64,000 nucleotides of DNA from a virus (IMGVR_UViG_3300040807_002082:1-64000); one strand, 5' to 3'; shown: positions 3,385 to 61,222, counted from the first letter of the stretch. The notes: a model not told the origin generated them from the sequence alone. A program made the numbers and translations.

Positions 3385-3687
3385 TTATTTTTTAGGCTTG
3401 TAATACTTATCGTATATAAAGCCTATTTGTCTACGTTCAGGATGCTTATGTATCCACTGACCGGTTGATGGATCAAACTTGTTCTTAAAAAAGTTATCCA
3501 TCTTCCGGTTTCCAGTCTTAATAGACGGATCTACTTTCAAACACATTGCGTCAAATTCAGAATCAGGAATAAGCGATTCGTTTTCAAATTCATAAGCATA
3601 CGCATAAACGCTTAATTTAATACGTAAACGGATTTGTTCTGATTTTAAATCCTCGGGTGTTTTCTCAACAAAATCTAATAGCGACAT
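3385..3687 (-). CDS. stand-alone NAD-dependent DNA ligase subdomain Ia-like protein
   Basis: AYAYEFENESLIPDSEFD resembles the YY..D.P.ISD.EYD motif of LigA domain Ia. Confidence 0.65.
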   Translation of the reverse strand: MSLLDFVEKTPEDLKSEQIRLRIKLSVYAYAYEFENESLIPDSEFDAMCLKVDPSIKTGNRKMDNFFKNKFDPSTGQWIHKHPERRQIGFIYDKYYKPKK

Positions 3688-5024
3688 TTAATTCTCATCT
3701 GTATTTGATTTTTAGGGCAGGTGGTTAACCGATGAGCAGGTTCAACATGTTGATGACCGTGTAACTCAAAATCATAATTCATAATCATATTTGCCATAAC
3801 AACAAGTGCTTCAGTTTGAGCAAATGCTGAACCTGCACAAATATGAGGTCCACCGCCAAACGGAATATACGTACCTGGGATTATCTTGTCTTTATTTTCA
3901 GGCAAAAATCTGTCAGGAATAAAAGCATTTGGTTTAACCCAATACTTATTGTGTCTATGTATTGCGTATGGAATTACTAATATTGATCTATCAGCAATTA
4001 ACTTATAGCCTTCAATTTCAATGTCTTGGCTTGGGCAACGAGGAAACACTGTACTTGGCGGATATAGTCTCAATGTTTCCTGAAAGAAGGCTTTTGTAAA
4101 TTCAAGCTTATTCAAATTCTTTTGAGTTAATCCTTCTTTATAAATCTGTTTGATTTCGGTCCGCATACGGCTAATGTGTTGTGGTTGTTGCGTAAGGATA
4201 TAAAATATCCATGTTAGTACACTTGCCGTAGTTTCGTGGCCAGATAAAAAGAATACTGTAAGTTGGTCAATAATCTCTTCTTTGCTAAAGCCGTTACCAT
4301 CTTTATCTTTTGCGTTAATAACAAGATGAGCAATGTTATCCTTACTCGTATTGTTTACGTATTCATATCCGATTTGACTACGGATCCTACGGCAGGCGCG
4401 ATAAAAGATAGGTGGTTGTTTTTGTATCCGACTAGGATTTGTTATAAAGGTAGCAATATCTCTTGATGAAACCAATCTTTTAAACAATGACCAATCATCA
4501 AACATTTGTCTAGAAACATGGTCACTGATTGGTTTACCGAACATCAAACGATACATAACGTCTGACGTTAGATAATACATCATATAATCAAGAGAGAAAG
4601 TCCTTGGCAAATTCTCAATGAACTCATTAACAGTTTCAAGAATTGTGTCAAAGGACTTTTGGGATCTTAAAGAATAATAAGCAGGCGCAAGCATTTGTTT
4701 ATCCTTTGCCCACTTTTCTCCGGTTGTAATGAATAGACTTTTGCCGCCAAGTTCTTCTATAGAACTAACCAATAAATCGCTTTTATAAAATAATCCTTTT
4801 TCATCCTGAAGGATTTCTTTTGCGATTTTAGGATTGTTAACTAAAAGACTTCCTTGTCTTCCGAAAGGAACAACGTCGAGATTAAACGCAGTATCAGGTA
4901 ACAATTCTAAAAAGTTACCGTCGCCTTTGTATGCAGATCTTGCTAAAGACTGTAGTTGATTGAGCGCAATTGGCTTTGGCGGAATATAATCCACATTAGA
5001 ACTCCCGAAGCAAAGCTGACGCAA
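3675..5024 (-). CDS. cytochrome P450 (probable start GTG at 4994)
   Basis: I-helix SGHETT, K-helix ETLR, PDRF, heme motif FGGGPHICAG; N-terminal PPKP. Confidence 0.95.
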   Translation of the reverse strand: MRQLCFGSSNVDYIPPKPIALNQLQSLARSAYKGDGNFLELLPDTAFNLDVVPFGRQGSLLVNNPKIAKEILQDEKGLFYKSDLLVSSIEELGGKSLFITTGEKWAKDKQMLAPAYYSLRSQKSFDTILETVNEFIENLPRTFSLDYMMYYLTSDVMYRLMFGKPISDHVSRQMFDDWSLFKRLVSSRDIATFITNPSRIQKQPPIFYRACRRIRSQIGYEYVNNTSKDNIAHLVINAKDKDGNGFSKEEIIDQLTVFFLSGHETTASVLTWIFYILTQQPQHISRMRTEIKQIYKEGLTQKNLNKLEFTKAFFQETLRLYPPSTVFPRCPSQDIEIEGYKLIADRSILVIPYAIHRHNKYWVKPNAFIPDRFLPENKDKIIPGTYIPFGGGPHICAGSAFAQTEALVVMANMIMNYDFELHGHQHVEPAHRLTTCPKNQIQMRIKCRY

Positions 5025-5250
5025 GCATAATTGACATAACGCTATTCAATACAATAAGTGATCTGTCTTTCCACATAACCGAAACCCATAACCATAACAA
5101 GGTTCCAAACGTACCAACCGCAAGGTCAAGCATACGCCATTCAGGTCCTGCTTGTCGGAAAGTTACAGATACTAGGATAGCAACAGTTGCCGCCCATTTA
5201 ATGTACCAAGAAAAATTTTCACCATACCACTTGTCATCAGGTTTCATCAT
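4996..5250 (-). CDS. small 3-TM membrane protein
   Basis: 84 aa, three hydrophobic segments, W..KW.AT and WKDRSLIVLN. Confidence 0.75.
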   Translation of the reverse strand: MMKPDDKWYGENFSWYIKWAATVAILVSVTFRQAGPEWRMLDLAVGTFGTLLWLWVSVMWKDRSLIVLNSVMSIMLASALLREF

Positions 5251-5488
5251 TATCCCTTAAAGTTTTCGCCTGCATATCAACCATATCTTGTACACTTGCG
5301 ATTGCCAATTCTACAATATTTTCACTAATTGGCTGCAAGTTACCTGAATATAAACCAATTACAATATTATCTTCAATTTTATTACGGTTTACTTTGCCAT
5401 TATCTAACGGAAGGTGAAGACGCTGCGACAGAATATCTAACGCTAACGCACCTGCCTGTCTTACTTCATATTTTTCCTGTTTTGTCAT
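5237..5488 (-). CDS. hypothetical protein
   Basis: 83 aa; preceded by TTGACA-17-TAGTAT promoter. Confidence 0.7.
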   Translation of the reverse strand: MTKQEKYEVRQAGALALDILSQRLHLPLDNGKVNRNKIEDNIVIGLYSGNLQPISENIVELAIASVQDMVDMQAKTLRDNDET

Positions 5489-5528
5489 AAGAGATCCTTA
5501 ATTCAATATAGTAATACTATACTATTAT

Positions 5529-6245
5529 TTAGGAGATGTCAACCATTTTTTTCCATTTTTCAACAGGCGGCAATGTTCGTTGATATGACATTGAATGATT
5601 ACGAGTAATTAAGATATCACCTGAAACACAGAATCTTGTCTTATACAAATCTTCTTTTGTTTTAAAACCTTGAATACCTGTAGGTTGATCTCCGTCGCGT
5701 ACTTCAACGTCGTGCGACAGGTCAGATGGGAAGATATACAAAACACCTTCGTTAACTTGAAGGTACACAACATTAGAATTTACCGAATCCCAGTCTGTTA
5801 CGTTATCGTTAAAGAAAAGGCCATATGGTTCGTTTGCGTGTTTGCCGTTTTTAAACAGCATCAGATCTCTTTCTTTACCTTCTGCAATGTGTGGATAATA
5901 TACAAAAGAGATATGGTTTTCAGCATGATCGTGTTTACGAATACCTGCCTCATTCGTTACATTAAAGAATGACTTTGTGATATGCAGGTCAATATTTTTT
6001 CTATTGATATGTAACCCATCAAGGTATTCATGAACCGCAGGATTCAAAACGTGTTGATAGAAAAAGGAAACAGAATCATCAAGGTGTAATTCTTCAAATC
6101 CGAGCCAATCGTGAGATTCACCATTTTGATTTGAATGCTTTAGAAATAAATCAAACCACAGTTCTTTTTCTTCTTGTCTAACCGTGCGATCTAATTTTGT
6201 TACGACCGTCGGAAATAATAATATATGTTCCATTTTTAATCCCAA
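5529..6245 (-). CDS. 2OG-Fe(II) oxygenase, TIGR02466-like
   Basis: LFPT start, HDH..NHISFVYY, IFPSDLSH.V, R..VS. Confidence 0.8.
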   Translation of the reverse strand: MGLKMEHILLFPTVVTKLDRTVRQEEKELWFDLFLKHSNQNGESHDWLGFEELHLDDSVSFFYQHVLNPAVHEYLDGLHINRKNIDLHITKSFFNVTNEAGIRKHDHAENHISFVYYPHIAEGKERDLMLFKNGKHANEPYGLFFNDNVTDWDSVNSNVVYLQVNEGVLYIFPSDLSHDVEVRDGDQPTGIQGFKTKEDLYKTRFCVSGDILITRNHSMSYQRTLPPVEKWKKMVDIS

Positions 6246-6883
6246 AGGTTTTCATAATACTTTCCGAATAATCGGAATCCATTGTTCATTCTTTCTTGAT
6301 GTGCTTTTCGGCCTTCATCATCTGTCCATTCAAAGCGGCCGCCCATTATGCTGCCATCTTCACTTTGAATATACGGGCCGTAATAATCTTCTTCCCAAGA
6401 ATCGCGGCATTTTTGCTCAAATGCCCAAATCATTTCGTCCATAATCCAATCCCAACGATCAAAAAACTTTTCGTCAGTTTCGCCGTTTGACCGAAATGCT
6501 TTGCTTTCAGGATCATTAATTCGCAATTCTTCTGGCACATCAGTCATATCAACATTTGGAGCACCTTGCTTAGTTTCTTTTAATTGTTTGAGCATTGAAA
6601 GTATAATTGGAGCAAGAGTATGATCCATGCTCCAAGTGTCATACCGGTCAATACGAACTTTAACTTTTTGTTCTTTGCGATCAAGATACAAGTTGATTGA
6701 ACGGTTATAGATCCACTGTAACACATCTTCTGTTTTTTCTAAAAAGTTTTCAAAACGTGTCTGTGTTTCAGGCCAATCGGTGTAGACGTCATACTTTTTT
6801 TTCATGTAACGGTCGTGTACACAACTTACCCAACGGTTTACATATGGTCCAATATAAACTTTCATTATATAAACAACTCCCAA
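6236..6883 (-). CDS. conserved phage hypothetical protein
   Basis: 215 aa; DTWSMDHTLA, WDWIMDEMIWAF, GFRLFGKYY. Confidence 0.8.
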   Translation of the reverse strand: MGVVYIMKVYIGPYVNRWVSCVHDRYMKKKYDVYTDWPETQTRFENFLEKTEDVLQWIYNRSINLYLDRKEQKVKVRIDRYDTWSMDHTLAPIILSMLKQLKETKQGAPNVDMTDVPEELRINDPESKAFRSNGETDEKFFDRWDWIMDEMIWAFEQKCRDSWEEDYYGPYIQSEDGSIMGGRFEWTDDEGRKAHQERMNNGFRLFGKYYENLWD

Positions 6884-7374
6884 CTTGGATGCTTAATTGT
6901 AAATTCCATCTGTTTTCTTTTACGAACCAATTCCCAATATCCTGGGCGGTATGGTTTATATTTAGGCTTCCAATCCATTCGGTTGCCTTTCGTCGAGTTG
7001 CAAGGATTACATGCTGCAACAATATTAGTCCACTCGGTTTTACCACCCCTACTAATTGGAATCACGTGGTCCATAGTTAAGTGAGTACGGCCAAAGTCGT
7101 TTCCGCAGTATTGGCATTTATACTGATCGCGTAAATAAAGGTTAGATTTTGAAAACCTAACCTCTGTCTTTGATTTGATATATTGTTTCATCATAATCAC
7201 GGCGGGAACTTTGGTTTCCCAAGAGGGGCTCCGGACTAGCCAATCGTCGTACCATTCTAATACGTCACACTTATTGTGGTACATGTATCTGATAGCTTCT
7301 TTCCAATTAATAACACTGAGTGGTAAATAGTTGACGGGTTGAGCATTTGCGTTTAGAATCAAAACGTCGGACAA
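6865..7374 (-). CDS. HNH endonuclease (McrA-like)
   Basis: RD.Y.CQYCG...TMDHVIP.SRGG...W.N.VAAC..CN..K. Confidence 0.92.
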   Translation of the reverse strand: MSDVLILNANAQPVNYLPLSVINWKEAIRYMYHNKCDVLEWYDDWLVRSPSWETKVPAVIMMKQYIKSKTEVRFSKSNLYLRDQYKCQYCGNDFGRTHLTMDHVIPISRGGKTEWTNIVAACNPCNSTKGNRMDWKPKYKPYRPGYWELVRKRKQMEFTIKHPSWELFI

Positions 7375-7397
7375 CTTTAGACCTCCTTTTTTGCTAT

Positions 7398-8279
7398 CTA
7401 ATGGTATTTATTTAACTCCAACCTAAATTGATCTTTACACATTTGTTCTAAGCTTTTTGTTAAATTGCAATGTTCAGACAAATTATCCACGATACAACAT
7501 TCAGCATCTCCATCACGCCTAGGTGCTAATTTAATTGGTATCTCCTGCCCTGTAGTATTTCGCATTGCTGTAATTACATCAAGCACTGTATAGCCTTGTT
7601 TGGATCCAAGGCATTCGTATGGCGTATTTGTTGGACCTTTTAATATCGCACTTAATATTGAATTACATACATCAGTAACATGAATATAGTCACGGATACA
7701 AGTACCGTCACGAGTATTGTAGTCATCACCAAATATCTCAACGTGGGGAATCTTCCCACAAGCCACCATAGCAGCACGACGAATGAGATGGGTAGCAGGA
7801 CCAAGCTGGCGATGTATCCCATCGCTACCGCTAACATTAAAAAATCTAAAAATAGTATATCCATCTGACCTTTCCTTGATAATATCCTCGGCAGCTACCT
7901 TACTTCGAGCATATGGAGATTTCATTTCAAAAGCAGAACTTGTACTTGCAAATATAAAATGATTTGAGAAAACAGACCTAAGTAAATTGTCTGTTCCCAT
8001 TGTATTTACTCTATAATATTCAGAAGGTTCCTTTAAACTTTGTGGTACAACCGAACGACCAGCAAGGTGTACAACTGTATCGTATGCGTCAAACATTATT
8101 CTATCAGTAACATCATTAAATATACTAAAGCTTTCGTTTACATATTTGGTTATGTCATTATATTCGCCATGGAACCTAATATCCATAGTATCCATTTCAA
8201 AGCCACCCCATTCTGCCAACAGCTTAACAAGATGACTACCAATATAACCTTCGGCGCCTGTGATTAATACTTTTCTCAT
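7398..8279 (-). CDS. galE: UDP-glucose 4-epimerase
   Basis: ITGAEGYIGSH, SPYARSK, FRFFNV.G, DGTCIRDYIHV. Confidence 0.9.
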   Translation of the reverse strand: MRKVLITGAEGYIGSHLVKLLAEWGGFEMDTMDIRFHGEYNDITKYVNESFSIFNDVTDRIMFDAYDTVVHLAGRSVVPQSLKEPSEYYRVNTMGTDNLLRSVFSNHFIFASTSSAFEMKSPYARSKVAAEDIIKERSDGYTIFRFFNVSGSDGIHRQLGPATHLIRRAAMVACGKIPHVEIFGDDYNTRDGTCIRDYIHVTDVCNSILSAILKGPTNTPYECLGSKQGYTVLDVITAMRNTTGQEIPIKLAPRRDGDAECCIVDNLSEHCNLTKSLEQMCKDQFRLELNKYH

Positions 8280-8362
8280 ATTGTATACTTTATATTTAAG
8301 TAAATTACTATAGATACTACTATATCACACAGTACACATCGTGTCAACAAATAAATACTGTT

Positions 8363-8872
8363 ATGAAACATATTATTCTTCTTTTACTCGCTTTAGCTGT
8401 ATCTGCGTGTGATTTTAATGCGTCAGATAATATTTTTTCACGAGCATTACCTGCGCAAGAACAAACCTTAGCGCACAAAGCATATTATTATTTAGGTCTT
8501 GAAGAACAAAAAGATCGTAAACTCCTTAAAGATATAACAGGCGTAGACCCGGTTACAACTGAATGGTGCGCCGCGTTTGTTAATATGGTTCTTTTAGAAA
8601 ACGACATTCCTACCTCTGCCGATGTTAGCCATTACCCGTTGATGGCACGAAGCTTTTTACAATGGGGAAACGAAGTTGATGAACCTAAGAAGGGCGATAT
8701 AATTGTCTTTGAGAGGGGTGAAAGTGGTTGGCAAGGCCATGTTGGATTCTATGTAAATTCCAAGATTGTGAATGGCCAAAAAGTATACTACGTTCTCGGA
8801 GGGAACCAAAACGATAAAGTCTCCATTATGATATACCCAGCAGATAAGCTGTTAAGTATACGCAGGCTATGA
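8363..8872 (+). CDS. TIGR02594-type NlpC/P60/CHAP-like cell-wall peptidase, lipoprotein
   Basis: WCAAFV, GDIIVF, GHVGF, LGGNQ; signal with lipobox VSAC. Confidence 0.85.
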   Translation: MKHIILLLLALAVSACDFNASDNIFSRALPAQEQTLAHKAYYYLGLEEQKDRKLLKDITGVDPVTTEWCAAFVNMVLLENDIPTSADVSHYPLMARSFLQWGNEVDEPKKGDIIVFERGESGWQGHVGFYVNSKIVNGQKVYYVLGGNQNDKVSIMIYPADKLLSIRRL

Positions 8873-9082
8873 GTTTTCTTTAGAAGGCGGCACTACAGGA
8901 ATACATACTGCTTGAATGTTTGGTGGAAAATATCCTGAAGGCATTCCAAACAAAGCTGATGATAACGATTCTCTCGCTGCAAAACATTCTGAAAAACTTT
9001 CAAACGTTCCTACACTGCTTGCTGCTATTTTGATTTCGCCTGATACCTGTAAAGATACCACGATGGCGATTAAGGTAAACAT
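8867..9082 (-). CDS. small exported two-Cys protein
   Basis: MFTLIAIVVSL... with F..F.EC and AVC; SD AAGGA; the longer track ORF overlaps tRNA-Thr. Confidence 0.7.
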   Translation of the reverse strand: MFTLIAIVVSLQVSGEIKIAASSVGTFESFSECFAARESLSSALFGMPSGYFPPNIQAVCIPVVPPSKENS

Positions 9083-9100
9083 AACGTTCCTTTCTAAATA

Positions 9101-9176: not shown

Positions 9177-9178
9177 CT

Positions 9179-27033: not shown

Positions 27034-27212
27034 TGCTTCTACACCTTTTCGTTTCTCCCATGGCTGCCTACTTCATGACTTTGGTGTGGGCAGCCATTTT
27101 TGGTAATACTGCAGGTACATCTGAGCTTATGATAGAAGAATGGATCATATGTATACAGTTATACCTTGGTGTTGCACTTATGATACAATTTAAGAAATCT
27201 TCAAAAGAATAG
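27033..27212 (+). CDS. small membrane protein
   Basis: TAATG coupling; two hydrophobic segments. Confidence 0.55.
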   Translation: MLLHLFVSPMAAYFMTLVWAAIFGNTAGTSELMIEEWIICIQLYLGVALMIQFKKSSKE

Positions 27213-27247
27213 TTGACATTTCCGTGTTTTTGTATTATATATAGACT

Positions 27248-27550
27248 GTGGACGTTGAAACAAAATAAAGACGGATCGGACTCGGGTGCGATTCCCGACG
27301 CCTCCACCAAAAGCACACAGTCTACTGGTGAATGAGATAACAATGCTCATAATAAAAGTCCAAACTGTGTGTTTTTGATGGGGGCGAATTAGGATCGACG
27401 GACGTAATAGTTGAGTGGAGTTCACCGTGTTGACCTACGTTATTCGGTCAAACAAACTAAATGCAAACGATAACTTTGCACCATCTGAATCATTTGCTCT
27501 AGCAGCATGATCACAGGGGGCTGGCCACTTGCCTAGCAACAGAAAAGTGG
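27248..27550 (+). ncRNA. ssrA: two-piece (circularly permuted) tmRNA, alphaproteobacterial type
   Basis: Acceptor 3' end GACTCGGGTGCGATTCCCGACGCCTCCACCA (to 27309) precedes the 5' end GGGGGCGAATTAGGATCGAC (27380); tag frame 27463-27510 ANDNFAPSESFALAA*; GCAACAGAA 3' hairpin; TTGACA promoter at 27213. Confidence 0.93.
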
Positions 27551-27583
27551 TTTTTTATGCACATAAAAAAGAAAGGACAAAAG

Positions 27584-28372
27584 ATGCGTAAACTACTAGT
27601 AACAACAGCACTTGTTTTTACCGCGGGTTCAGCAATGGCCGCAGAATTGGGTGGAGAAATTTCCGTAGATATCGCAGAGACAGCTGCAGGAGATTGGGGT
27701 GCAACCACATCTTTTGACTTAGGTATTGCGTCAATGGGTTCAGCTGTTCCAGCATTTGGAGCGATTGAACTTGATATGGACGAAGAAGGAGATATTACTC
27801 TTGACGAATGGAAAATCGGTACTGTCATTAATGGCGATGCTGTAATTTCAATCGGTGACCAAGGTAATATTTGGTTGGATCGCGAATCAGATGCTGCACA
27901 CGCAACAACCGCGGATCCAGCAATGAAGGAATCAGTACAAGTAACGGCTTTAGGAGCGTCTATGGCAATTGGCTTTACTGATGTCGAAGCGGACGTAACT
28001 GATATTGAAAACGTCCAAGGCAAATACGAAATGGGAGTAGGTGCGAATATTAATGTTGCCGCAGCAGGCGATTACAATATGAACTCTGAAGAATGGACAA
28101 TCGGCGGCCGCGCAGAAGTAGGTGTTAACGATATGTTCGCTATCGGTCAAATGGTAACATACGGCTCAGCTGATGAGAAAATCGGTTATGAATCCGATAT
28201 CTCAGCATTTGGTGTTACTGCATATTTGAACGGTGATGCTGATGAGCTTGCACAAAACGTTGGTGGTTCATATACATATGATCTAAACGGTATTGAACTA
28301 GGTGCTGGTGTTAACTATAACATTGACACTGAAGCAACTACACCATCTGTATCTGCATCATTTGCTTTTTAA
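27584..28372 (+). CDS. outer-membrane porin-like beta-barrel
   Basis: Signal peptide MRKLLVTTALVFTAGSAMA, amphipathic beta strands, very acidic, C-terminal SASFAF. Confidence 0.85.
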   Translation: MRKLLVTTALVFTAGSAMAAELGGEISVDIAETAAGDWGATTSFDLGIASMGSAVPAFGAIELDMDEEGDITLDEWKIGTVINGDAVISIGDQGNIWLDRESDAAHATTADPAMKESVQVTALGASMAIGFTDVEADVTDIENVQGKYEMGVGANINVAAAGDYNMNSEEWTIGGRAEVGVNDMFAIGQMVTYGSADEKIGYESDISAFGVTAYLNGDADELAQNVGGSYTYDLNGIELGAGVNYNIDTEATTPSVSASFAF

Positions 28373-28428: not shown

Positions 28429-28458
28429 GGTCTTCTGTATAAATAAAACTGATTACGT

Positions 28459-29022
28459 ATGGAGGATGACATGTCTTTGAAATTAAAAGAACTTACGTGG
28501 GCTCATCACCAAGCAGCAGAAAGAAGAGCGTTTGCTAAACAGCTTTTAAGTGGTAAAATTGAACCAAAGCTGTATCATAAGTTCTTGTGTTGCCAATATT
28601 TGAATTATCAAATTCTTGAGTCATACACAGAAGTACCATCGCATTTATTACCGATAAGAAGAGAATCACGTATCTGGACAGACATCCGTGAGCTTGAGGT
28701 AGAATACGATTTAACACCCGATGGAAATTACCCTCAATCCGTCGAGGATTATAACAAACATATTAAGAGTCTTGCTGAAAAAGGAGATCAACACGGTCTT
28801 CTTGCGCATATGTATGTACGTCATTTTGGCGATTTACATGGCGGTCAGATGATTAAAAAACGAGTTCCTGGTTCTGGTAAAATGTATGAGTTTGAACTCG
28901 AAAAAGAATATCTCATTGAGGAATTTCGTAAATATCTTGATGACGATATGGCTGAGGAAGCGAAAATATGTTTTGATTTTGCATCTCAGCTTTTTGATGA
29001 ATTGTCTAAAGAAATAGATTGA
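28459..29022 (+). CDS. hemO: heme oxygenase (HemO type; probable start 28471)
   Basis: LKELTWAHHQAAE proximal His helix, YVRHFGDLHGGQMI distal helix, EA..CF; TATAAATA at 28438. Confidence 0.92.
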   Translation: MEDDMSLKLKELTWAHHQAAERRAFAKQLLSGKIEPKLYHKFLCCQYLNYQILESYTEVPSHLLPIRRESRIWTDIRELEVEYDLTPDGNYPQSVEDYNKHIKSLAEKGDQHGLLAHMYVRHFGDLHGGQMIKKRVPGSGKMYEFELEKEYLIEEFRKYLDDDMAEEAKICFDFASQLFDELSKEID

Positions 29023-29075
29023 CATTTCATTAAACTGTTATATTATTAAATTGTAGCAAACAAACGGAGGGTAAC

Positions 29076-29249
29076 ATGGAACAAGCAATTCCTGTATACG
29101 AAGATGTTGAAGTTAAACCTGTAGTACGCGGAGAGCGTATGCTACGTAGTGAAGCTGCACGAACTAGGCGACGAGAATTGAAGACCGTTCGTGAGAATCG
29201 AGTCATTAACGAATGGGCACGTGCTCGGCGCGCAAAGAAGAAGAAATAA
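29076..29249 (+). CDS. Arg-rich 57-aa protein
   Basis: Hand translation MEQAIPVYEDVEVKPVVRGERMLRSEAARTRRRELKTVRENRVINEWARARRAKKKK; SD GGAGG. Confidence 0.7.
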   Translation: MEQAIPVYEDVEVKPVVRGERMLRSEAARTRRRELKTVRENRVINEWARARRAKKKK

Positions 29250-29452
29250 TGACAAGTTATTTGACAGAAGTAAAGGAGGATCCCCTTAACGGGGACCTCT
29301 ACATCGAGTTCCCACCAGAATTTTTAGAAGAATTAGGATGGGGAGAAAACGACGAACTGATTTGGGAACAAACCGATCTTGGTTGGTCAATAAGGAAAAA
29401 TGAAGATGCATCCATTATGGATCAGGCTCGAAAAACTGGCGACCAATCTTAG
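29249..29452 (+). CDS. AbrB/MazE/SpoVT-like small DNA-binding protein
   Basis: DLYIEFPPEFLEELGWGENDELIW. Confidence 0.75.
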   Translation: MTSYLTEVKEDPLNGDLYIEFPPEFLEELGWGENDELIWEQTDLGWSIRKNEDASIMDQARKTGDQS

Positions 29453-30089
29453 CAAAAAATTTGACGAGCATTTTACAAAATGGGATAATCCAAAATACGA
29501 TGATAGTCTAAAGTTTCCTGGATGGAAAGACGATTTTTGGTTATCTCCTTTAATTCGTAAAGCGCATTTAAAAACAATCGTACCTGAGGACGGTAAAGGA
29601 TTGTGGCTAATGCATGTGAATGTATTTCCACGCGAAGGTATTGAATTGCCAATCCTTGGGTTTGATATTGTAGCAGGTCCTAAAAAGATTACAGGATCTT
29701 TTATGGATTTTAGCCCATTACACGGTCATCCACATCCGTACCATGATTATATGGAAATGGTAGTTAAAAATCTTGAATGGGTTAAAGCAAGAGAATTACC
29801 ACCTTGGGCAAAAGAAATCTTTTCAGAGGATATGATTGCAGTTGGTAACATTAATACAGACGAAGAATTAAATCAATTCATTGACGTCACGACAGATCTT
29901 ACAGATTATTATTTAGATAACATTGTAAAAAATGCGTTCAGGTCAAATCGCGATACAAAACCAATTCTAAACAAATATTGCTTTAATCAAAAAATGAATC
30001 CACATTTACATCGTTCAATTGAAGCAATGGGCATCTCAAAACAAGATAAGAATCGTTACGTTGATACTATTTTATTTGAGGAGATATAA
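29400..30089 (+). CDS. pcyX: ferredoxin-dependent bilin reductase (PcyX/PcyA type)
   Basis: IRKAHL, LWLMHV.VFP, PILGFDIVAGPKKITG.F.DFSP, LPPWAKEIFS, YC.NQK.NPH. Confidence 0.88.
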   Translation: MKMHPLWIRLEKLATNLSKKFDEHFTKWDNPKYDDSLKFPGWKDDFWLSPLIRKAHLKTIVPEDGKGLWLMHVNVFPREGIELPILGFDIVAGPKKITGSFMDFSPLHGHPHPYHDYMEMVVKNLEWVKARELPPWAKEIFSEDMIAVGNINTDEELNQFIDVTTDLTDYYLDNIVKNAFRSNRDTKPILNKYCFNQKMNPHLHRSIEAMGISKQDKNRYVDTILFEEI

Positions 30090-30766
30090 TGGCATTTCTT
30101 GTACACCCTTTGCCGCCAGTGAGTGTATACGTACGTAAAGAATATTTGTATGATTTGGAAAAAGGACATGGTGAATTCACTCCAGGTATTTGGATAAGCC
30201 TTAAGAGCACTAAATATAAAGCTCTTTATTTTGAAACCTTGTTAACCGATTATGGTGCACTCTATGATAAACTTCCTATCTCGGCTTTCGTTTGGAAAAC
30301 AGATCATGGCGAGCTTCTTCCTCTTGATGTGCTTCAGCTATGGGATTGCTTTGACTATGACATCACTGTCGTACAAAAACCACTCTTGTCACGCTGTGAA
30401 TTTTTCGGAAAGGATCGAAGAATGCATGCAGGAGAATACGAATTCACAGTGGATAATTGTCACCGCGATACTTCCATCATTGACACCAACTTCAGTGAAC
30501 ACGATCCCGAACACAAATCCTTCAACGTCATTAGGCTTGACAACGGTCAATTCGCTGCTCAGCCTAACAATCGGGTTATCTGGCGTGATAGCTCCTTAAC
30601 TCCTGATAAATTACTACAGCCTGACTTTAAAGTATGTACTCAAAACTACGCAGTAGAAACAGAACCTAAATGGTCTGTTGGCCACACTGACGAATGGCAA
30701 TATAAGACAGAAGAAGAGTACGAAATTTACCAATCAAAAGAATTGAAGAAAGGAAAAAACAGTTGA
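30089..30766 (+). CDS. conserved hypothetical protein
   Basis: VRKEYLYD...GHGEF, LQLWDCF, EHKSFN, NGQFAAQPNNR. Confidence 0.85.
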   Translation: MAFLVHPLPPVSVYVRKEYLYDLEKGHGEFTPGIWISLKSTKYKALYFETLLTDYGALYDKLPISAFVWKTDHGELLPLDVLQLWDCFDYDITVVQKPLLSRCEFFGKDRRMHAGEYEFTVDNCHRDTSIIDTNFSEHDPEHKSFNVIRLDNGQFAAQPNNRVIWRDSSLTPDKLLQPDFKVCTQNYAVETEPKWSVGHTDEWQYKTEEEYEIYQSKELKKGKNS

Positions 30767-34327: not shown

Positions 34328-35745
34328 TGATTGAGAAAACAGTTTTAACTAACCTTATATTTAATGAAGATTATTATCGTCGAGTGTATCCATACATTAA
34401 GTCTGAATACTTTGATGATATTAGTCATAAGAAAATCTTTGATACTTATTCACATTATGTTGAAGAATTTAAGGAGCCTCCGTCAATTGAGGCTCTGAAA
34501 ATTTCTATTGATAAACGCAAAGATTTGAATGAAGATGCCTATAAGAATGTAATGGATCAAGTTTCCGAAATGAAACGAGATCCTGATACTAATCTTGATT
34601 GGCTGGTTAGTGAAACTGAAAAGTTCTGTCAAGACAAGGATTTGTTTAATGCTATTCGCAAAGCAATCCTTGTTATTGATGGAGAAGATAAAGAACTGGA
34701 TAAAGGTTCATTACCTGAGCTTTTATCTAATTCGCTCTCAATTAGTTTTGATACTTCTATTGGTCATGATTATCTTGAAGATTATGAAGGCCGATATGAT
34801 TTCTATCACAAGAAAGAAGAACGCCTTCCGTTTGATATTGACCTTCTAAACAAGGTCACTAAAGGCGGCTTACCACGCAAGTCAATGTCTGTGCTCCTTG
34901 CAACAACCGGCGGTGGTAAGTCGCTCGTCAAATGTCATATGGCTGCAAGCTATTTGATGCACGGTAAGAATGTTCTTTACATTACAATGGAAATGGCCGA
35001 AGAACGTATTGCTGAACGTATTGACGCCAATATGATGGATGTTACCATTGACGAATTAAAAGAACTCCCCAGAGATGTTTACGAAAAAAGAATTGGTCGT
35101 ATTCAATCAAAAACAACGGGCAAGCTTGTCGTTAAGGAATATCCAACAGGTTCGGCACACGTCGGCCATTTCCGCCATTTATTAAATGAACTACGTATGA
35201 AACGTGGTTTTACCCCTGATGTTGTCTTTATTGACTATCTAAATATTTGTGCAAGCGCTCGAGTAAAAGGTGCCGCTGCAGCTAATTCATATACACTTGT
35301 AAAATCAATTGCGGAGGAAGTTCGTGGCCTTGCTATGGAGTATAATTGCGCTGTCGTTACTAGTTCTCAGTTTAACCGCGACGGCTACGGGAACTCAGAC
35401 GTTGACCTTACTAACACTTCTGAGTCTATGGGGATCACTCATACTGCTGACTGTATCCTCGGCTTAATTACATCAGAAGATCTTGATAATCTTGGTCAAC
35501 TTATGATTAAGCAACTTAAAAATCGTTGGGGCGACTTGAGTTATTACCGTCGGTTTGTTGTCGGTATTGACCGAGCAAAAATGAAAATCTATGACCTTGA
35601 AGATTCAGCTCAGAACGGAGTTTCTCAAGACGGACCGCAGGCAGGCAAATTGCCAAAGCCTGATAACGATGCTCCGATATTTGACAAAGGTTCATTTGGT
35701 ACAAAAAGTAAGAAAGGACTGTTTTCTGCAGGAGATTTAATGTGA
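34327..35745 (+). CDS. 41: replicative DNA helicase gp41
   Basis: Walker [30 protein letters not shown]. Confidence 0.95.
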
Positions 35746-36086
35746 CGTATTTAGTTACGGACAACTGTATAAAATGTAAACATACCGATTGTGTTGCAGT
35801 TTGTCCGGTTGATTGTTTTTATGAAGGTGACGATATGCTTGTAATTGATCCAGACGAATGTATTGATTGCGGTGTGTGCGTTCCTGAATGTCCTGTTGAT
35901 GCTATCATTGCAGATGTAGATTTGCCCGAACCTGATAGATCTAAATGGATTGAAATTAATACTGTGTATAGCGACAAGTGGCGCTATAACAATATTACCG
36001 AGCAAAAAGATCCGTTACCCGATGCTGAAGATTGGGACGGAGTACCAAATAAGTATGAAGCGTTCATGGATAAGGAGATAAAATGA
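35742..36086 (+). CDS. fdxA: ferredoxin, FdxA family (7Fe/8Fe)
   Basis: [21 protein letters not shown]...[16 protein letters not shown]. Confidence 0.93.
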
Positions 36087-54854: not shown

Positions 54855-55541
54855 TTGAATGCACGTCTCATCTCACATAGTCAACCCTCAAATCGAATCC
54901 ACGCTGGCGAACTTGCAGCGCAGGGGCTTGACAACATCCAAGACCTCATCGCCTACGCAGCCCGTGTCTCCAATCCAGCCAATCAGGCTAACACCAAAAC
55001 AACAGCAAAACTACTTGACTATCTCATCAAGCACAAGCACTGGAGCCCCTTCGAAATGGCAAGCGCCTGCATCGAAGTTGACACAACCCGAGACATTGCA
55101 AGACAACTCCTCAGACACCGTTCGTTTTCATTTCAAGAGTTTTCTCAGCGGTATGCTGATGTGCGCGATCTTGATGATTCTGTTGTAATTCGTAAGGCAC
55201 GGTTGCAAGATCCAAAGAATCGCCAAAACAGCGTAATGACTGATGACGTAAGTCTACACCAATCGTGGGAAACACATCAGCGCTTAGTATGGAATGCTGC
55301 GATGAAAGCATATAGCTGGGCAATTGAAAATGGTATTGCCAAAGAACAGGCACGATCTGTTTTGCCCGAAGGAAATACCCCTTCACGTCTATACGTCAAT
55401 GGTACTATTCGTTCTTGGATTCATTATATTGAATTGCGTTCAGCAAATGGAACACAACAGGAACATATGGATTTGGCAATTGCTGTAGCTGAGGCTATAT
55501 CCAAAATTTACCCAGATGTAACTAAATTTATTTCGGAATAA
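54855..55541 (+). CDS. thyX: flavin-dependent thymidylate synthase
   Basis: HWSPFE, RHRSFSFQEFSQRY, AKEQAR.VLP, TQ.EH; TTG start after SD AAGGAG. Confidence 0.95.
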   Translation: MNARLISHSQPSNRIHAGELAAQGLDNIQDLIAYAARVSNPANQANTKTTAKLLDYLIKHKHWSPFEMASACIEVDTTRDIARQLLRHRSFSFQEFSQRYADVRDLDDSVVIRKARLQDPKNRQNSVMTDDVSLHQSWETHQRLVWNAAMKAYSWAIENGIAKEQARSVLPEGNTPSRLYVNGTIRSWIHYIELRSANGTQQEHMDLAIAVAEAISKIYPDVTKFISE

Positions 55542-55585
55542 GACATATATTGATGATGTGTACCAATAAATACAATATGTTGTCT
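55540..55585. promoter_or_regulatory. tandem NrdR-box-like operators flanking a late promoter before nrdA
   Basis: ATACAATATGTTGTCT (55570) and AAGACATATATTGATG (55540) versus consensus acaCwAtATaTwGtgt; AATAAATA at 55565. Confidence 0.6.
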
Positions 55586-55612
55586 TAATAGATTATTAGA
55601 AAAGGAAAACCT

Positions 55613-57910
55613 ATGATTCAGGTAGTAAAACGTGATGGGCGTAAAGAAACACTAGATATCGAGAAATTTCACAAAGTTGTATTCCATGCTTGTGAAGATG
55701 TCACTGGTGTTAGCCCATCGGAAGTGGAAATCAAAAGCCAAATCCAATTTTTCAATGGAATGTCAACAAAAGAAATTCAGGAAACATTGATTAAAGCTGC
55801 GTCTGATCTGATTTCTGAAGAGACTCCAAATTATCAATTTGTTGGCGGCCGTTTGATTAATTACGCTTTACGAAAAGAAGTCTATGGATCCTTTGAACCG
55901 ATCCACGTTAAGGAATTGGTTGAACGTAATACTGAGCATGGCTTTTACGATCCTGAATTAATTACTTATTACAATGATGAAGAATGGGACAAGATCAATG
56001 GTTTCATTAAGCATCAGCGTGATGAACAACTAACATATGTTGCCATGGAACAATTGCGTGGCAAATATCTGTGCCAAAACAGAGTTACAGGAGAAATCTT
56101 TGAAACACCGCAAATGTGTTATATCTTGATTGCTGCAACTCTTTTCAATAACTACCCAAAAGAAACCCGTTTGAAATGGGTTAAGGACTATTATGACGCC
56201 ATCTCTCTTCACGATATCAGCCTTCCTACTCCTGTCATGGCAGGTGTACGTACTCCTCAACGTCAGTTCTCGTCGTGCGTACTTATCGAAACAGGTGATT
56301 CCCTTGACAGCATTAATGCTACTTCTAGTAGCATCGTTAAGTACGTATCCCAAAAAGCAGGAATTGGAATTGGGGCTGGTTCAATCCGCGCTATCGGTTC
56401 ACCTATTAGGAAAGGAGACGCGTACCACACAGGAGTAATTCCTTTCTATAAGCACTTCCAATCTGCAACTAAATCTTGTTCTCAAGGTGGTGTTCGTGGC
56501 GGTGCTGCAACTTTGTATTATCCTATTTGGCATTATGAAGTTGAAGATTTGGTTGTCTTAAAAAACAACAAAGGTACCGAAGACAACCGCGTACGCCATA
56601 TGGACTACGGTGTTCAATTCAACAAACTAATGTATGAACGTTTAATCAAAGGTGAAGAAATTACATTGTTCTCTCCTAAAGATGTCCCAGGTTTGTATGA
56701 TGCGTTCTTTGCGGATCAAGACAAGTTTCGTGAGCTATATGAAAAAGCTGAACGCGCCACGAGTATTCGCAAGAAGAAAATTCCTGCGGCTCAGCTGTTC
56801 AGTATGTTTATGGAAGAACGCAAAAATACTGGTCGCATTTATCTACAAAACGTTGATAACGCAAATGATCATGGCGCGTTTTGGCCTGAGGTTGCGCCGA
56901 TTCGTCAATCAAACCTTTGCGCTGAAATTGATTTGCCAACCAAACCATTGAATGATATTAATGATCCTGAAGGTGAAATCTCTCTATGTACTCTAAGTGC
57001 TATTAACTGGGGTAACGTTAAATCGCCGGCAGATTTTGAAAAGGCATGTACACTTGCTGTTCGTGGTCTAGATGCTCTACTTTCATACCAAAATTATCCT
57101 ATTTTGGCTGCACAGCTTTCTACTGAAAAGCGTCGTCCTATTGGTGTTGGTATTATTAACTTTGCATATTGGTTGGCTAAGCAAGATTTGACATATCAAG
57201 ATATTACTCCTGAAGGTCTTGAGCTGATTGACGAATATGCCGAAGCATGGTCCTATTATCTGATTAAGGCATCAGCCGATCTCGCGGTTGAGCAAGGCGC
57301 CATTCCCGGTGTAATGGAAACTAAATACGGTAACGGTATTACGCCAAACCAAACATACAAGAAGGATCTCGACGATCTTGTTCCTCACAAAGAGCGTATG
57401 GATTGGAATGGTTTGCGCCGTCAACTTAAAGATACAGGCATTCGTAATTCTACCTTAATGGCATTGATGCCTTCAGAAACAAGTGCACAAGTTGCCAACG
57501 CTACGAACGGTATTGAACCACCTCGGTCGTTGATTTCCGTTAAGCAATCAAAGCACGGTGTACTCAAGCAGGTGGTTCCACAATTCCACCATTTGAAAAA
57601 TAAGTATGATTTGCTGTGGGATCAAAAATCTCCGCAAGGATACTTAAAGATTATGGCTGTTCTTCAGAAATACATTGACCAAGGTATCTCTGTCAATACA
57701 AGTTATAATCCGCAATTCTTTGAAGATGAAAAGATTCCAATGAGCGTGTTACTACAAGACCTTCTTATGTTCTATAAGTATGGAGGTAAGCAATTGTATT
57801 ACTTCAATACATATGATGGTCAAGGCGAACTTGATATTGATAAGATGACTGAAGAACCCCTTGCTCAAGGCGAAGTTGACGATGACGATTGCGAGTCTTG
57901 TAAAATCTAA
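55613..57910 (+). CDS. nrdA: class Ia ribonucleotide reductase alpha subunit with ATP cone
   Basis: VVKRDG, QFSSC, QSNLCAEI, YYFNT, C-terminal CESC. Confidence 0.97.
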   Translation: MIQVVKRDGRKETLDIEKFHKVVFHACEDVTGVSPSEVEIKSQIQFFNGMSTKEIQETLIKAASDLISEETPNYQFVGGRLINYALRKEVYGSFEPIHVKELVERNTEHGFYDPELITYYNDEEWDKINGFIKHQRDEQLTYVAMEQLRGKYLCQNRVTGEIFETPQMCYILIAATLFNNYPKETRLKWVKDYYDAISLHDISLPTPVMAGVRTPQRQFSSCVLIETGDSLDSINATSSSIVKYVSQKAGIGIGAGSIRAIGSPIRKGDAYHTGVIPFYKHFQSATKSCSQGGVRGGAATLYYPIWHYEVEDLVVLKNNKGTEDNRVRHMDYGVQFNKLMYERLIKGEEITLFSPKDVPGLYDAFFADQDKFRELYEKAERATSIRKKKIPAAQLFSMFMEERKNTGRIYLQNVDNANDHGAFWPEVAPIRQSNLCAEIDLPTKPLNDINDPEGEISLCTLSAINWGNVKSPADFEKACTLAVRGLDALLSYQNYPILAAQLSTEKRRPIGVGIINFAYWLAKQDLTYQDITPEGLELIDEYAEAWSYYLIKASADLAVEQGAIPGVMETKYGNGITPNQTYKKDLDDLVPHKERMDWNGLRRQLKDTGIRNSTLMALMPSETSAQVANATNGIEPPRSLISVKQSKHGVLKQVVPQFHHLKNKYDLLWDQKSPQGYLKIMAVLQKYIDQGISVNTSYNPQFFEDEKIPMSVLLQDLLMFYKYGGKQLYYFNTYDGQGELDIDKMTEEPLAQGEVDDDDCESCKI

Positions 57911-57973
57911 TTGACATTTATTTAATTTGTGATATATTTGAAAATATATTAATCAAAAAAAGAAGGAAAACGA

Positions 57974-59101
57974 ATGAGTGTATTCGACGTACAAAACCGT
58001 GTTGACCATACAGCTGTTGCGGCATTTTTGGATCCTAGCGGTGGTCCTACAATTCAACGCTATGATACACTAAAGTATAAGCAATTTGACCAATTGACTG
58101 ATAAGCAATTAGGTTTCTTTTGGCGTCCTGAAGAAGTTGATATTTACAAAGATGCAAAAGATTTCAAAAATTTAACTGAGCACGAACAGCATATCTTTAC
58201 TTCCAATCTAAAGCGCCAAATCCTTCTTGATTCTGTTCAAGGCCGTGCACCTGCTGAAAGCTTTGGTTCTATTGTTTCGTTACCTGAACTTGAAAATTGG
58301 ATTATCACTTGGACGTTTTCTGAAACAATCCACAGCCGTTCTTATACGCATATTATTCGTAACGTATATTCAAATCCGTCTAAGATCTTTGATGAAATGA
58401 TGGATATTCAAGAAATCGTTGATTGTGCTGATTCCATTTCAGGCTATTATGATGAGCTCATTAAAATGGCAGGTTACTACAATTTGTTGGGTGAAGGCCG
58501 TCACGCTATCAACGGCGACATTGTTGCTGTAGATCTATATGAAATGAAAAAGCTTTTATACCTTACGCTGATGAGCGTAAACATTTTAGAAGGAGTTCGT
58601 TTCTATGTATCATTTGCGTGCTCGTGGGCGTTTGCCGAGCTCAAGAAAATGGAAGGTAACGCTAAGATTATTAAGCTTATTGCTCGTGATGAGAATCTCC
58701 ATTTGGCTTCAACGCAAATGATGTTAAAATTGCTTCGTAAAGAAGATCCTGACTTTGAAAAGATTGCGACTGAAACTGAAGAAGCATGTATTCAAATGTT
58801 TGTAGACGCAGTTGACCAAGAAAAAGCTTGGGCTGAATACCTATTCAAAGATGGGAGTATGATTGGATTAAATACTGAGCTGTTGAGTCAATACATTGAG
58901 TATATTGCCAATCGCCGTATGACCAATGTTAAATTAAAATCTCCTTACAATATTAAAAACAATCCATTACCGTGGACACAAAAATGGATTTCAGGCGCAG
59001 AGGTGCAGGTTGCTCCTCAAGAAACTGAAATTACTAGTTATGTACAAGGTGGAACTAAACAAGACGTATCAACTGACACATTTAAAGGATTCTCACTATG
59101 A
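57974..59101 (+). CDS. nrdB: class Ia ribonucleotide reductase beta subunit
   Basis: FFWRPEEV, ETIHSRSY, EGVRFY.SF, DENLH. Confidence 0.97.
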   Translation: MSVFDVQNRVDHTAVAAFLDPSGGPTIQRYDTLKYKQFDQLTDKQLGFFWRPEEVDIYKDAKDFKNLTEHEQHIFTSNLKRQILLDSVQGRAPAESFGSIVSLPELENWIITWTFSETIHSRSYTHIIRNVYSNPSKIFDEMMDIQEIVDCADSISGYYDELIKMAGYYNLLGEGRHAINGDIVAVDLYEMKKLLYLTLMSVNILEGVRFYVSFACSWAFAELKKMEGNAKIIKLIARDENLHLASTQMMLKLLRKEDPDFEKIATETEEACIQMFVDAVDQEKAWAEYLFKDGSMIGLNTELLSQYIEYIANRRMTNVKLKSPYNIKNNPLPWTQKWISGAEVQVAPQETEITSYVQGGTKQDVSTDTFKGFSL

Positions 59102-59352
59102 CCGTAGAAATTTGGGGTAAGGAAGCTTGCCCATCATGTAAATCAGCAAGACAGTTTTGTAGATCTCGAAACCTAGATTTTGATTATAAAATTCTAGGAA
59201 CGGATTTTACTCGTGAAGAAGTGTTTGAAAACTTTCCTGAAGCAAAAACTTTTCCACAGATTAAAGTTAATGGTAGTATCGTTGGTGGTTATGAGGCATT
59301 TGTAAAATACGTTGAGGACACGGGATACACAGGAACTGGTCACTCATTATAA
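59098..59352 (+). CDS. glutaredoxin
   Basis: CPSC, TFPQI, VGGY. Confidence 0.92.
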   Translation: MTVEIWGKEACPSCKSARQFCRSRNLDFDYKILGTDFTREEVFENFPEAKTFPQIKVNGSIVGGYEAFVKYVEDTGYTGTGHSL

Positions 59353-59373
59353 ATAATTCGTAATAATAATTAA

Positions 59374-60582
59374 GTGAGTTATATTATGGATTACTTGCAA
59401 TATTTTGAGGATACGATAAAAGACTTTAAATCCGATGGACGATATAGAGTCTTTAACGATATCATTCGAGAAAAAGGAAATTTTCCTAAAGCAATATGGT
59501 ATGGTAAGTATGCTCCAAAAAATATTGTAAATTGGTGCTCTAATGATTATCTAGGTATGGGTCAAAACCAATATGTTATTGATGCCATGCACACTGCGTT
59601 AGACCAAACAGGCGCAGGTTCTGGCGGTACTCGTAACATCGGCGGGACATCCCAATATCACGTTACCCTTGAGCGGGAACTTGCGCTGCTTCACAACAAA
59701 GAGGCGGCGCTTCTTTTTTCTTCGGCATATGTAGCAAATGAATGGTCGATTATTGCTCTTAGCCGTATTATACCAAATATTTGTTATATTTCGGATACAA
59801 AGAATCATGCTTCTATTATTATGGGTGTTAAGCATAGCCGAGCACCGAAGCATTTGTTTGAACATAACAATATGCAAGACTTGGAAGAAAAACTCGAAAC
59901 CGCAGTTAAGAATAACCAAATCCCTTGTATTCTATTTGAGTCAGTTTATTCCATGGACGGTGATGTATCACCCATCAAAGACATCTGTGATTTAGCAGAT
60001 AAATATGGGGCAATAACTTATATTGATGAAGTTCATGCAGTTGGTTTGTATGGAGACACCGGCGCAGGTTATTGCGAACAGTTAGGTCTCCAAGATAGGA
60101 TAACAATTATAAATGGAACATTGGGAAAAGCCTTTGGGGTTCAAGGTGGGTATATTGCTGGCGATCGCATTGTTACTGACGCTATTCGGTCCGTGGCTTC
60201 TGGGTTCATCTTTACAACAAGTATCTCGCCCGCAATCTGCGCAGGTGCTATTGCCTCCATCAAATATCTCCGTGACCATCCTTCCCTCCGCAGAAGACAT
60301 CAGAAAAAAGCAGAACAATTAAAGTATCTGCTCGGCCACGAAGATATTCATATTCATCAAAACGCGTGCACACATATCGTACCCGTGATGGTTAACGATG
60401 CGTTTAAATGTAAAGCCGCGAGTGACCGTCTATTGAATGATTATGGAATTTATATTCAACCAATTAACAGTCCTACAGTTGATCCTGGTACTGAAAGATT
60501 ACGTATTGCGCCAACCCCTTATCACGACGATATAATGGTTATTGAATTGGTTACTGCATTGAAAGAAGTACTATGTGGGTGA
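59374..60582 (+). CDS. hemA: 5-aminolevulinate synthase (Shemin/C4 pathway)
   Basis: [64 protein letters not shown]. Confidence 0.95.
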
Positions 60583-60749
60583 TAAGAAATAAAGAAGGCG
60601 AATTGATTGGTATGTCTCCACGTAAAGAAGAAGCAATTAATATGGCTGAAAGAAACTATAAACGTGATGAATATATAATTGAAGAAGCGTTAGATCAGAT
60701 TGAGTTGTTTCAAATCTATCGTTCTTATTATAAAACGAGGTCAATATGA
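60573..60749 (+). CDS. 58-aa hypothetical protein
   Basis: Hand translation [28 protein letters not shown]...; overlaps both neighbours. Confidence 0.6.
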
Positions 60750-61222
60750 ATCAACTTGAAGCCGCATTTTTCGGCAAAACAATATGGAAGAAAGAGAATA
60801 AGATGACTAAATTGAAAAAAGCATTCTGGTTTGTACTTGGTATTTTGTGTTTGGGTATTGCATACCTAGGCGTAATTCTACCAGGTATTCCGTGGAGTAC
60901 CCCGATCCTTGGCGCAGCATTTTGCTTTGCTAAGTCGAGCGAAAAGTTCCACAATTGGATTATGAACCATAAACTGTTTGGACCATTCATTACCGAATGG
61001 CAAACGTATAAAGTATATCCACAAAAAGGCAAGTATATTATGATGGCGGTTATGTCAACATCACTTGCCGTAATGTGGTTTGGTACAGGCAATCCGATGG
61101 CAACGTTATACTTGTTTATCTTGTTTGCTTTGATTGTTACGTGGGCATGGAGATTTCCAGGTTCGAAAGAAGAAGCACAGCGTCGTATTGATGCAGGAGA
61201 GAAGCTTGGCTGGTTTAAATAA
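60746..61222 (+). CDS. ybaN: YbaN/DUF454 inner-membrane protein
   Basis: G..LPG.P...P...AA.CF.KSS..FH.W..NH..FGP.I..W. Confidence 0.88.
   Translation: MNQLEAAFFGKTIWKKENKMTKLKKAFWFVLGILCLGIAYLGVILPGIPWSTPILGAAFCFAKSSEKFHNWIMNHKLFGPFITEWQTYKVYPQKGKYIMMAVMSTSLAVMWFGTGNPMATLYLFILFALIVTWAWRFPGSKEEAQRRIDAGEKLGWFK

Follow-up and report, generated by a model that had tools for sequence, protein, structure and literature searches.

Conserved tetrapyrrole genes of a T4-like viral contig pair a viral ALA synthase with a YbaN/DUF454 membrane protein

The viral contig IMGVR_UViG_3300040807_002082, of which the first 64,000 nucleotides (hereafter the window) were analysed, encodes a set of proteins predicted to act in the supply and breakdown of heme. 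Four of the genes form a core that is conserved among related phages: a heme oxygenase (hemO), a PcyX-like ferredoxin-dependent bilin reductase (FDBR; gene pcyX), a viral 5-aminolevulinate synthase (ALAS; gene valaS or hemA) and a YbaN/DUF454 inner-membrane protein. An earlier reading made from the sequence alone (hereafter the sequence-only reading) had joined these four with a ferredoxin (FdxA) and a cytochrome P450 in one system of six intact heme-linked genes. All six genes passed our family and residue checks, and the entry step of heme synthesis and the heme-to-bilin branch do co-occur across relatives. The P450 and FdxA are strain-specific accessory genes and do not belong to the core. 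The genes are thus probably best understood as the published tetrapyrrole genes in their "broken cassette" form, with DUF454 as a fourth member; together they would turn central metabolites into a bilin and additional heme, with FdxA and the P450 as accessories.

Every open reading frame (ORF) of the contig was compared with 70 viral ALAS loci (65-85% identity to the ALAS of the window) and with several whole contigs. Eight contigs of the close ALAS clade (G003, G004, G009, G018, G019, G038, G041 and G043) reach at least 25.6 kb upstream of hemA and span both loci. All eight have valaS, and all eight have an FDBR gene 25-30 kb upstream of it; G019 starts at the FDBR gene, leaving HemO out of view, and G043 was checked for FDBR only. 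The other seven all encode DUF454, and none of them encodes FdxA or the P450. A 221-kb genome estimated to be 100% complete (G131) likewise has HemO, FDBR, valaS and DUF454 and lacks FdxA and the P450. HemO, FDBR and DUF454 are found without valaS, FdxA or the P450 in a 183-kb genome (G132, 91% complete), and the complete genome of the cultured phage Mosig has HemO and FDBR only. The P450 and FdxA are therefore missing from G131, G132, G041 (63% complete) and six syntenic fragments. Co-occurrence across relatives, which the sequence-only reading expected of all six genes, holds for four of them and fails for the P450 and FdxA, a pattern that this reading had itself named as contrary to a six-gene system. 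In the window, hemO and the FDBR gene are 0.4 kb apart and valaS lies 30 kb downstream on the same T4-like contig; hemO is upstream of the FDBR gene in all 62 relatives with enough upstream sequence.

The association between DUF454 and valaS is close enough for DUF454 to be called a near-obligate partner of valaS in phages. A DUF454 gene was found within 10 kb of hemA, usually directly downstream, in 56 of the 70 viral ALAS loci, or 56 of 61 when nine loci that end too early downstream are excluded. The five loci without a nearby DUF454 belong to one distant sub-clade, and one member of it (G028) has a DUF454 gene 30 kb off. In the reverse direction, hemA stands immediately 5′ of DUF454 in 29 of 30 viral contigs, and the thirtieth contig ends at the gene. 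A profile built from the viral proteins detected DUF454 within 10 kb of hemA in none of 71 cellular-looking loci; with the same profile, DUF454 was found near hemA only in eight contigs that are filed under metagenome-assembled genomes (MAGs) and carry phage genes, their ALAS being nested among viral ones. Neither PF04304 nor heme oxygenase was found among 81 Pelagibacteraceae genomes. We found no report of a valaS-DUF454 partnership in the literature searched, and DUF454/YbaN, a P450 and a phage ferredoxin have no mention in Wegner et al. 2024 (PMC11480375) or its supplements. In a phage with a distant valaS (L049, 3012-7549), the corresponding operon consists of a grx-nrdB fusion, hemA, an alternative oxidase (PF01786), a 289-aa ORF, Cpn10 and DUF454.

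The DUF454 protein of the window matches PF04304 with 100.7 bits (cut-off 35.1) over profile positions 1-114 of 115. Its AlphaFold model predicts membrane helical hairpins (pLDDT 80). When the model was compared with the PDB, Foldseek returned no match at E ≤ 0.001 and a wide VIA-align search gave a best Z of 6.1, to generic helical hairpins; at the level of a predicted model, the structure search says nothing on function. Among viral DUF454 proteins, His69 is invariant and Cys60 and His75 are nearly so, within a motif (CFAKSS..FH.W) beside the first hairpin. The link of YbaN to heme and iron, which the sequence-only reading had drawn, was borne out by three independent contexts: ybaN of E. 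coli is regulated directly by Fur; in a survey of the hemophore-secretion system T11SS (type XI secretion system), DUF454 (118 of 1111) and heme oxygenase (137 of 1111) are among the top co-occurring domains; and an Acinetobacter hemO cluster contains ybaN, as described below. DUF454 most likely handles heme or another tetrapyrrole at the inner membrane.

The hemO gene encodes a short heme oxygenase that scores 72.5 bits against PF01126 (cut-off 23). The proximal His (His17) and the distal-helix sequence GDLHGGQ are kept in nine relatives as well as in the window, and the gene probably starts at the internal ATG given in Table 1 because the relatives begin there. The FDBR scores 56 bits against PF05996 (cut-off 31), and its closest solved structure is that of phage PcyX (5OWG, E 1e-35; PcyA, 4e-15). 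Residue equivalences were taken from a table in PMC13446030. The catalytic residues His72 and Asp89, which correspond to His88/Asp105 of PcyA and His86/Asp103 of PcyX, are invariant in 80 of 80 relatives. At the position of PcyA Glu76 and PcyX Asp72, however, the protein has Lys58, and so do 80 of the 80 closest viral relatives; Asp was seen at this position only in a distant clade (L079 and L080) and in Mosig. Asp-type FDBRs also accompany the distant ALAS clade in G034 and G037, and none was found in the available sequence of G028, G031 and G032. The residue at PcyA Glu76 is needed for D-ring vinyl reduction and differs between makers of phycocyanobilin and phycoerythrobilin (PMC13446030). 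We filed the reductase as PcyX-like, and not as PcyX, because Lys and not Asp stands at this position.

Lys-type reductases are carried by at least 126 contigs in IMG/VR. In the FDBR sequences of the supplement of Wegner et al. 2024, four Lys-type motifs had no occurrence and the Asp-type motif had 26; the Lys-type clade therefore seems to be unsampled there, and no description of it was found in the literature searched. A more specific proposal can be attached to these observations, and we put it forward only tentatively: DUF454 would be a transporter or membrane chaperone for heme, porphyrin or 5-aminolevulinate (ALA), co-opted by phages with ALAS and HemO, and, separately, the Lys-type reductases would make a bilin unlike those of PcyA and PcyX.

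The ALAS was identified with TIGR01821 (557 bits, cut-off 339), well above its scores for the paralogues KBL (305 bits) and BioF (304 bits), and it matched the solved ALAS structures 7X98 (E 5e-131) and 2BWN (E 7e-123). Its pyridoxal-phosphate lysine, K252, aligns with K248 of Rhodobacter capsulatus (2BWN) and is invariant in ten viral sequences. The heme-feedback site His342 of R. capsulatus is replaced by Lys345, suggesting that the viral enzyme probably escapes heme feedback. Relatives and alignments to solved structures point to the internal start codon listed in Table 1 as the probable start. Directly upstream of hemA are nrdA, nrdB and grx, as the sequence-only reading had noted. In a quick maximum-likelihood tree, a clade of 60 viral ALAS rows (SH-aLRT 97), in which the ALAS of the window pairs with L003, was sister to Pelagibacteraceae, and the cellular ALAS were separate.

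Some sequences filed as bacterial fell within the viral ALAS clade of this tree. The ALAS of two Neisseriaceae genomes and a Francisella MAG (L128, L129 and L130; contigs of 96-500 kb) nest there on long branches, being 59-66% identical to that of the window; phages may have passed the gene to these lineages, which normally rely on the C5 pathway. Viral-clade ALAS were also found on nine MAG-filed contigs of unrelated taxa (L119-L127: Rhodobacteraceae Water_Bin34, Saprospiraceae, Crocinitomicaceae, Vibrio, an unclassified alphaproteobacterium, Polynucleobacter, Neomarinimicrobiota and Flavobacteriales), one of which, L125, is 335 kb long. Eight of the nine also carry DUF454, and the ninth, L123, spans 1.3 kb only. 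These nine contigs look like mis-binned phage DNA.

Taken together, the four core enzymes and proteins suggest the following route. The valaS product would convert glycine and succinyl-CoA to ALA, host enzymes would carry ALA to heme, HemO would split heme into biliverdin, iron and carbon monoxide, and the PcyX-like reductase would turn biliverdin into a phycobilin, with a membrane role for DUF454 in handling a tetrapyrrole. FdxA may contribute electrons and the P450 may draw on heme, both as strain-specific extras. The useful product would be the bilin or the extra heme and not a net gain of iron, because heme made de novo would consume the iron that HemO later frees. Iron release, one of the aims considered in the sequence-only reading, would for this reason receive no help from an ALA synthase.

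Several points weigh against such a joint route. The valaS and hemO-FDBR loci are 30 kb apart and lie behind promoter-like motifs of different types. Either half occurs alone: valaS is absent from G132 and Mosig, and it is present without a visible FDBR in G028, G031 and G032. Because each can occur alone, the two halves may serve separate ends. DUF454 is not strictly tied to ALAS, because G132 retains it, together with hemO and the Lys-type reductase, after the ribonucleotide reductase genes (L422, 7487-12953), without an ALA synthase. The Lys58 reductase may make neither phycoerythrobilin nor phycocyanobilin, the contigs from RNA libraries described below may hold carried-over DNA, and the host assignment is indirect. 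The GC content, at 38%, is higher than is usual for cultured pelagiphages. We know of no bilin acceptor in the phage or in its presumed host.

The separation of the two loci and their independent occurrence would be expected if two unrelated modules shared the genome by descent, with valaS and DUF454 providing heme for respiration or cytochromes, and hemO and the reductase acting on existing host heme for iron or a bilin signal. A role of valaS in supplying heme for respiration was indeed proposed by Wegner et al. (PMC11480375). We judge this explanation unlikely, though it is the best of those that compete with the joint route. Both halves are present in all eight informative contigs of the close clade, and other phages as well as Bradyrhizobium sp. 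ORS278 have three-gene cassettes in which all members are adjacent. DUF454 itself ties the halves to each other, since it stays with hemO and FDBR in G132, where valaS is absent, and adjoins hemO in Acinetobacter.

The integrated six-gene system of the sequence-only reading, in which HemO, the reductase and the P450 would all draw electrons from the phage ferredoxin and surplus heme would be taken up by the P450 as a hemoprotein, fares worse and appears improbable. In its favour, all six genes are intact in a single genome, HemO, the reductase and the P450 are of established ferredoxin-using classes, and contigs with fdxA and with pcyX were present in the same metatranscriptomes. One contig, L208, shares the arrangement of FDBR and FdxA, and it is the only one found with FdxA in this slot; FdxA is missing from the slot in G038, G004, G018, G019, G009, G003, G041, G131 and G132. 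Since the P450 and FdxA are absent from all syntenic relatives examined, a complete genome included, the six-gene system is largely refuted by lack of co-occurrence.

The distribution of the two genes elsewhere also argues against their membership in a heme system. Relatives of FdxA occur in at least 598 viral contigs, whose ±10-kb flanks mostly contain no heme genes but do contain other genes of this phage type. The protein has a complete 7Fe [3Fe-4S][4Fe-4S] cysteine pattern, as in Azotobacter-type FdI, with a CxxCxxCxxxCP motif, and is thus not of the 2Fe-2S class used in published FDBR assays; it may still donate electrons. Neither a plant-type 2Fe-2S motif nor a second P450 loop was found in the 77.7-kb contig. 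The P450 is intact in its Cys loop (FGGGPHICAG), its ExxR motif (ETLR) and its I-helix (SGHETT). It had no relatives in IMG/VR viral contigs and no close one in a scan of metagenome contigs. The protein database held three close clusters (91, 74 and 59% identity) from short contigs; the nearest cellular relatives were gammaproteobacterial, in Halieaceae, at about 42% identity. The gene is absent from G038, G004, G131 and G132 despite the presence of flanking genes. In G131, the flanks of the cassette that contains it (ORF 3226-3384 and a 2-oxoglutarate (2OG) oxygenase gene) adjoin each other directly, indicating an insertion in the window relative to G131.

As a last explanation, the heme genes might be carried without function, in decay or as neutral passengers. 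Nothing speaks for this directly beyond the patchiness of the P450 and FdxA, and it is hardly credible: catalytic residues are invariant across relatives 36-85% identical, no frame is interrupted, the genes recur in hundreds of contigs, and in vitro activity is known for a related viral AlaS, HemO and PcyA.

Table 1. Positions of the heme-linked genes and of other features in the window.
Feature	Position	Strand	Support or remark
Accessory cassette of about 2.1 kb (83-aa ORF, DUF6552 membrane protein, P450, Nlig-Ia-like ORF)	3385-5488	-	Pfam matches
Cytochrome P450, CYP3/4/97/102-like E-class	3675-5024	-	PF00067, E 3e-68, 231 bits
DUF6552 membrane protein	4996-5250	-	
Sigma70-like site before P450 operon	5542-5514	-	
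2OG-Fe(II) oxygenase	5529-6245	-	
Two-piece tmRNA, alphaproteobacterial type	27209-27553	+	RF01849, 110 bits; RF04321, 126 bits; missed by ARAGORN
Porin-like protein	27557-28372	+	Signal peptide, C-terminal Phe; directly upstream of hemO
T4-type late-promoter motif TATAAATA	28438-28445	+	33 nt before probable hemO start
Heme oxygenase (hemO), short phage form	28459-29022	+	PF01126, E 5e-20; probable start ATG 28471
Sigma70-like site TTGACA-16-TATTAT between hemO and pcyX	29019-29046	+	11/12 positions; best in region
PcyX-like FDBR, Lys58 variant	29400-30089	+	PF05996
ORF coupled translationally to pcyX	30089-30766	+	phrog_3704, E 5e-102
7Fe ferredoxin FdxA	35742-36086	+	NF045490, 156 bits (cut-off 135); PF11953 (DUF3470 tail), E 2e-16
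TATAAATA in 3′ end of grx	59348-59355	+	31 nt before probable hemA start
Viral 5-aminolevulinate synthase (valaS/hemA)	59374-60582	+	TIGR01821; probable start ATG 59386
YbaN/DUF454 inner-membrane protein	60746-61222	+	PF04304, E 7e-29

The late-promoter motif TATAAATA is over-represented in the window, with 14 occurrences where 6.2 were expected (none of 100 shuffles reached 14), and its copies are mostly just upstream of ORF starts. The late motifs before hemO and hemA and the sigma70-like sites before pcyX and the P450 operon, from which the sequence-only reading had proposed staged expression, are present. The motif before hemA was found in none of 69 relatives; staged expression is therefore not conserved, and it is at best weakly indicated. 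In three estuary metatranscriptomes, contigs start at 29065-29078, which is 10-30 nt past the sigma70-like site upstream of pcyX. This is a possible transcript 5′ end and gives a weak hint of a separate early or middle transcript for the small ORFs and pcyX. Near-identical contigs with pcyX and with fdxA are present in estuary metatranscriptomes. The hemO gene is nearly without cover in the contigs from RNA libraries, where absence of cover is not evidence, and this was not used.

The ORF coupled to pcyX, which the sequence-only reading had proposed to test for bilin fluorescence, was rejected as a bilin apoprotein, and it has no exclusive association with the reductase. It is a common cyanophage and pelagiphage gene, 76-80% identical to the gene in 114 cyanophage and pelagiphage records, including S-SSM5 and Syn2, and it belongs to the cyanophage core. 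Its relatives are annotated as "PurM" or "ferredoxin", annotations that look unfounded, and it had no usable protein-atlas match. The high identity suggests exchange with cyanophages. The porin-like ORF before hemO is kept in that place in G131, G038, G018 and G003 (44-49% identity); it had no Pfam or PHROG match, and in the atlas it fell among viral clusters alone, with weak leads to porins. Neither a PHY domain nor a phycobiliprotein domain above cut-off was found in the contig of the window, G131, G132, G041 or G038, in agreement with the earlier statement that no bilin-binding apoprotein is recognisable. In G131, a single open frame (35177-35464) encodes a giant protein of 3674 aa; a PF00502 match within it was sub-threshold (14.5 bits) and was taken as chance. 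The 2OG-Fe(II) oxygenase gene lies upstream of the P450 operon, and the gene of the DUF6552 membrane protein runs in the same direction as the P450 gene, an arrangement suggestive of a small cassette for oxidative tailoring.

The window covers the initial 64 kb of a viral contig of 77,680 bases in IMG/VR, for which CheckV estimated a completeness of 37%, implying a full genome of about 210 kb. The contig has a T4-like backbone (UvsX-like recombinase, gp59-like helicase loader, DnaB-type helicase and NrdAB), a GC content of 37-40% and four tRNA genes. Near-identical DNA was found in more than 12 estuary metagenomes and also in estuary metatranscriptomes. The source is probably an uncultured estuarine T4-like phage related to pelagimyophages. 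Its host is probably an alphaproteobacterium, because the two-piece tmRNA is of the alphaproteobacterial type and the viral ALAS clade is sister to Pelagibacteraceae.

That a phage can both feed and drain a heme pool is already in the literature, and the window adds little in that respect. The comparison among relatives distinguishes the four genes of the conserved core from additions at strain level, and it provides a strong guilt-by-association lead for DUF454/YbaN, a protein that is Fur-regulated in E. coli and present in heme-uptake loci. The reductase clade most frequent in these phages is distinct at the residue that determines which bilin is formed, a point that bears on why phages infecting non-photosynthetic bacteria produce bilins. 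If DUF454 has a tetrapyrrole role or the Lys-type reductases yield a new bilin, a new biochemical step would be added to this phage lineage, and the former would give a function to a large family of proteins of this domain.

The core of valaS, hemO and pcyA/X, including its broken-cassette layout, has been published. Wegner et al. 2024 (Nat Commun 15:8783; PMC11480375) described alaS genes from phage contigs of marine and freshwater origin; alaS stands alone there, is grouped with hemO and pcyA/X in a three-gene cassette, or belongs to a "broken cassette" with hemO and pcyA/X together and valaS nearby, on contigs related to pelagimyophages. They demonstrated activity of AlaS, HemO and PcyA of a freshwater phage and noted the loss of the heme-feedback residue in many viral AlaS (PMC11480375). 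The window resembles these loci in its viral-clade ALAS nearest to Pelagibacteraceae, its adjacent hemO and FDBR genes with valaS apart, its loss of His342 and its aquatic origin. It is set apart by genes that the paper does not mention (DUF454/YbaN, a P450 and a phage ferredoxin) and by its Lys-type FDBR. Phage PcyX with a phage HemO from marine metagenomes was reportedly described by Ledermann et al. in 2016 and 2018 (structure 5OWG). As in that pair, the reductase of the window is encoded next to a short heme oxygenase and retains both catalytic residues (His and Asp), but it is only about 35-38% identical to PcyX and the Mosig protein and has Lys58 in place of Asp72. The best match to the reductase from a cultured phage is that of Pelagibacter phage Mosig EXVC030M (34.5% identity), a phage without ALAS, DUF454, FdxA or P450. 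Matches to the P450 in the phage collection were limited to Mycobacterium phage Adler (23% identity), a Pseudomonas phage fragment and a Mollyvirus, and the P450 of the window is related to viral P450s (Adler, giant viruses) at the family level only.

Two bacterial systems are close in content. The island hemO-pcyA-alaS-bphP of Bradyrhizobium sp. ORS278, which serves de novo bilin formation as described in PMC11480375, combines an ALA synthase, a heme oxygenase and an FDBR as the window does. Unlike the phage and its complete relative, in which no PHY or phycobiliprotein domain was found, it includes an adjacent bilin-accepting phytochrome. The heme-uptake cluster of Acinetobacter around hemO (T11SS/Slam, TonB, heme oxygenase and ybaN) is a cellular locus for heme import that contains neither ALAS nor a bilin reductase, and its DUF454 is 29% identical to that of the window. 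It shares with the phages, however, the company of DUF454 and heme oxygenase, DUF454 being placed there directly after the heme oxygenase gene.

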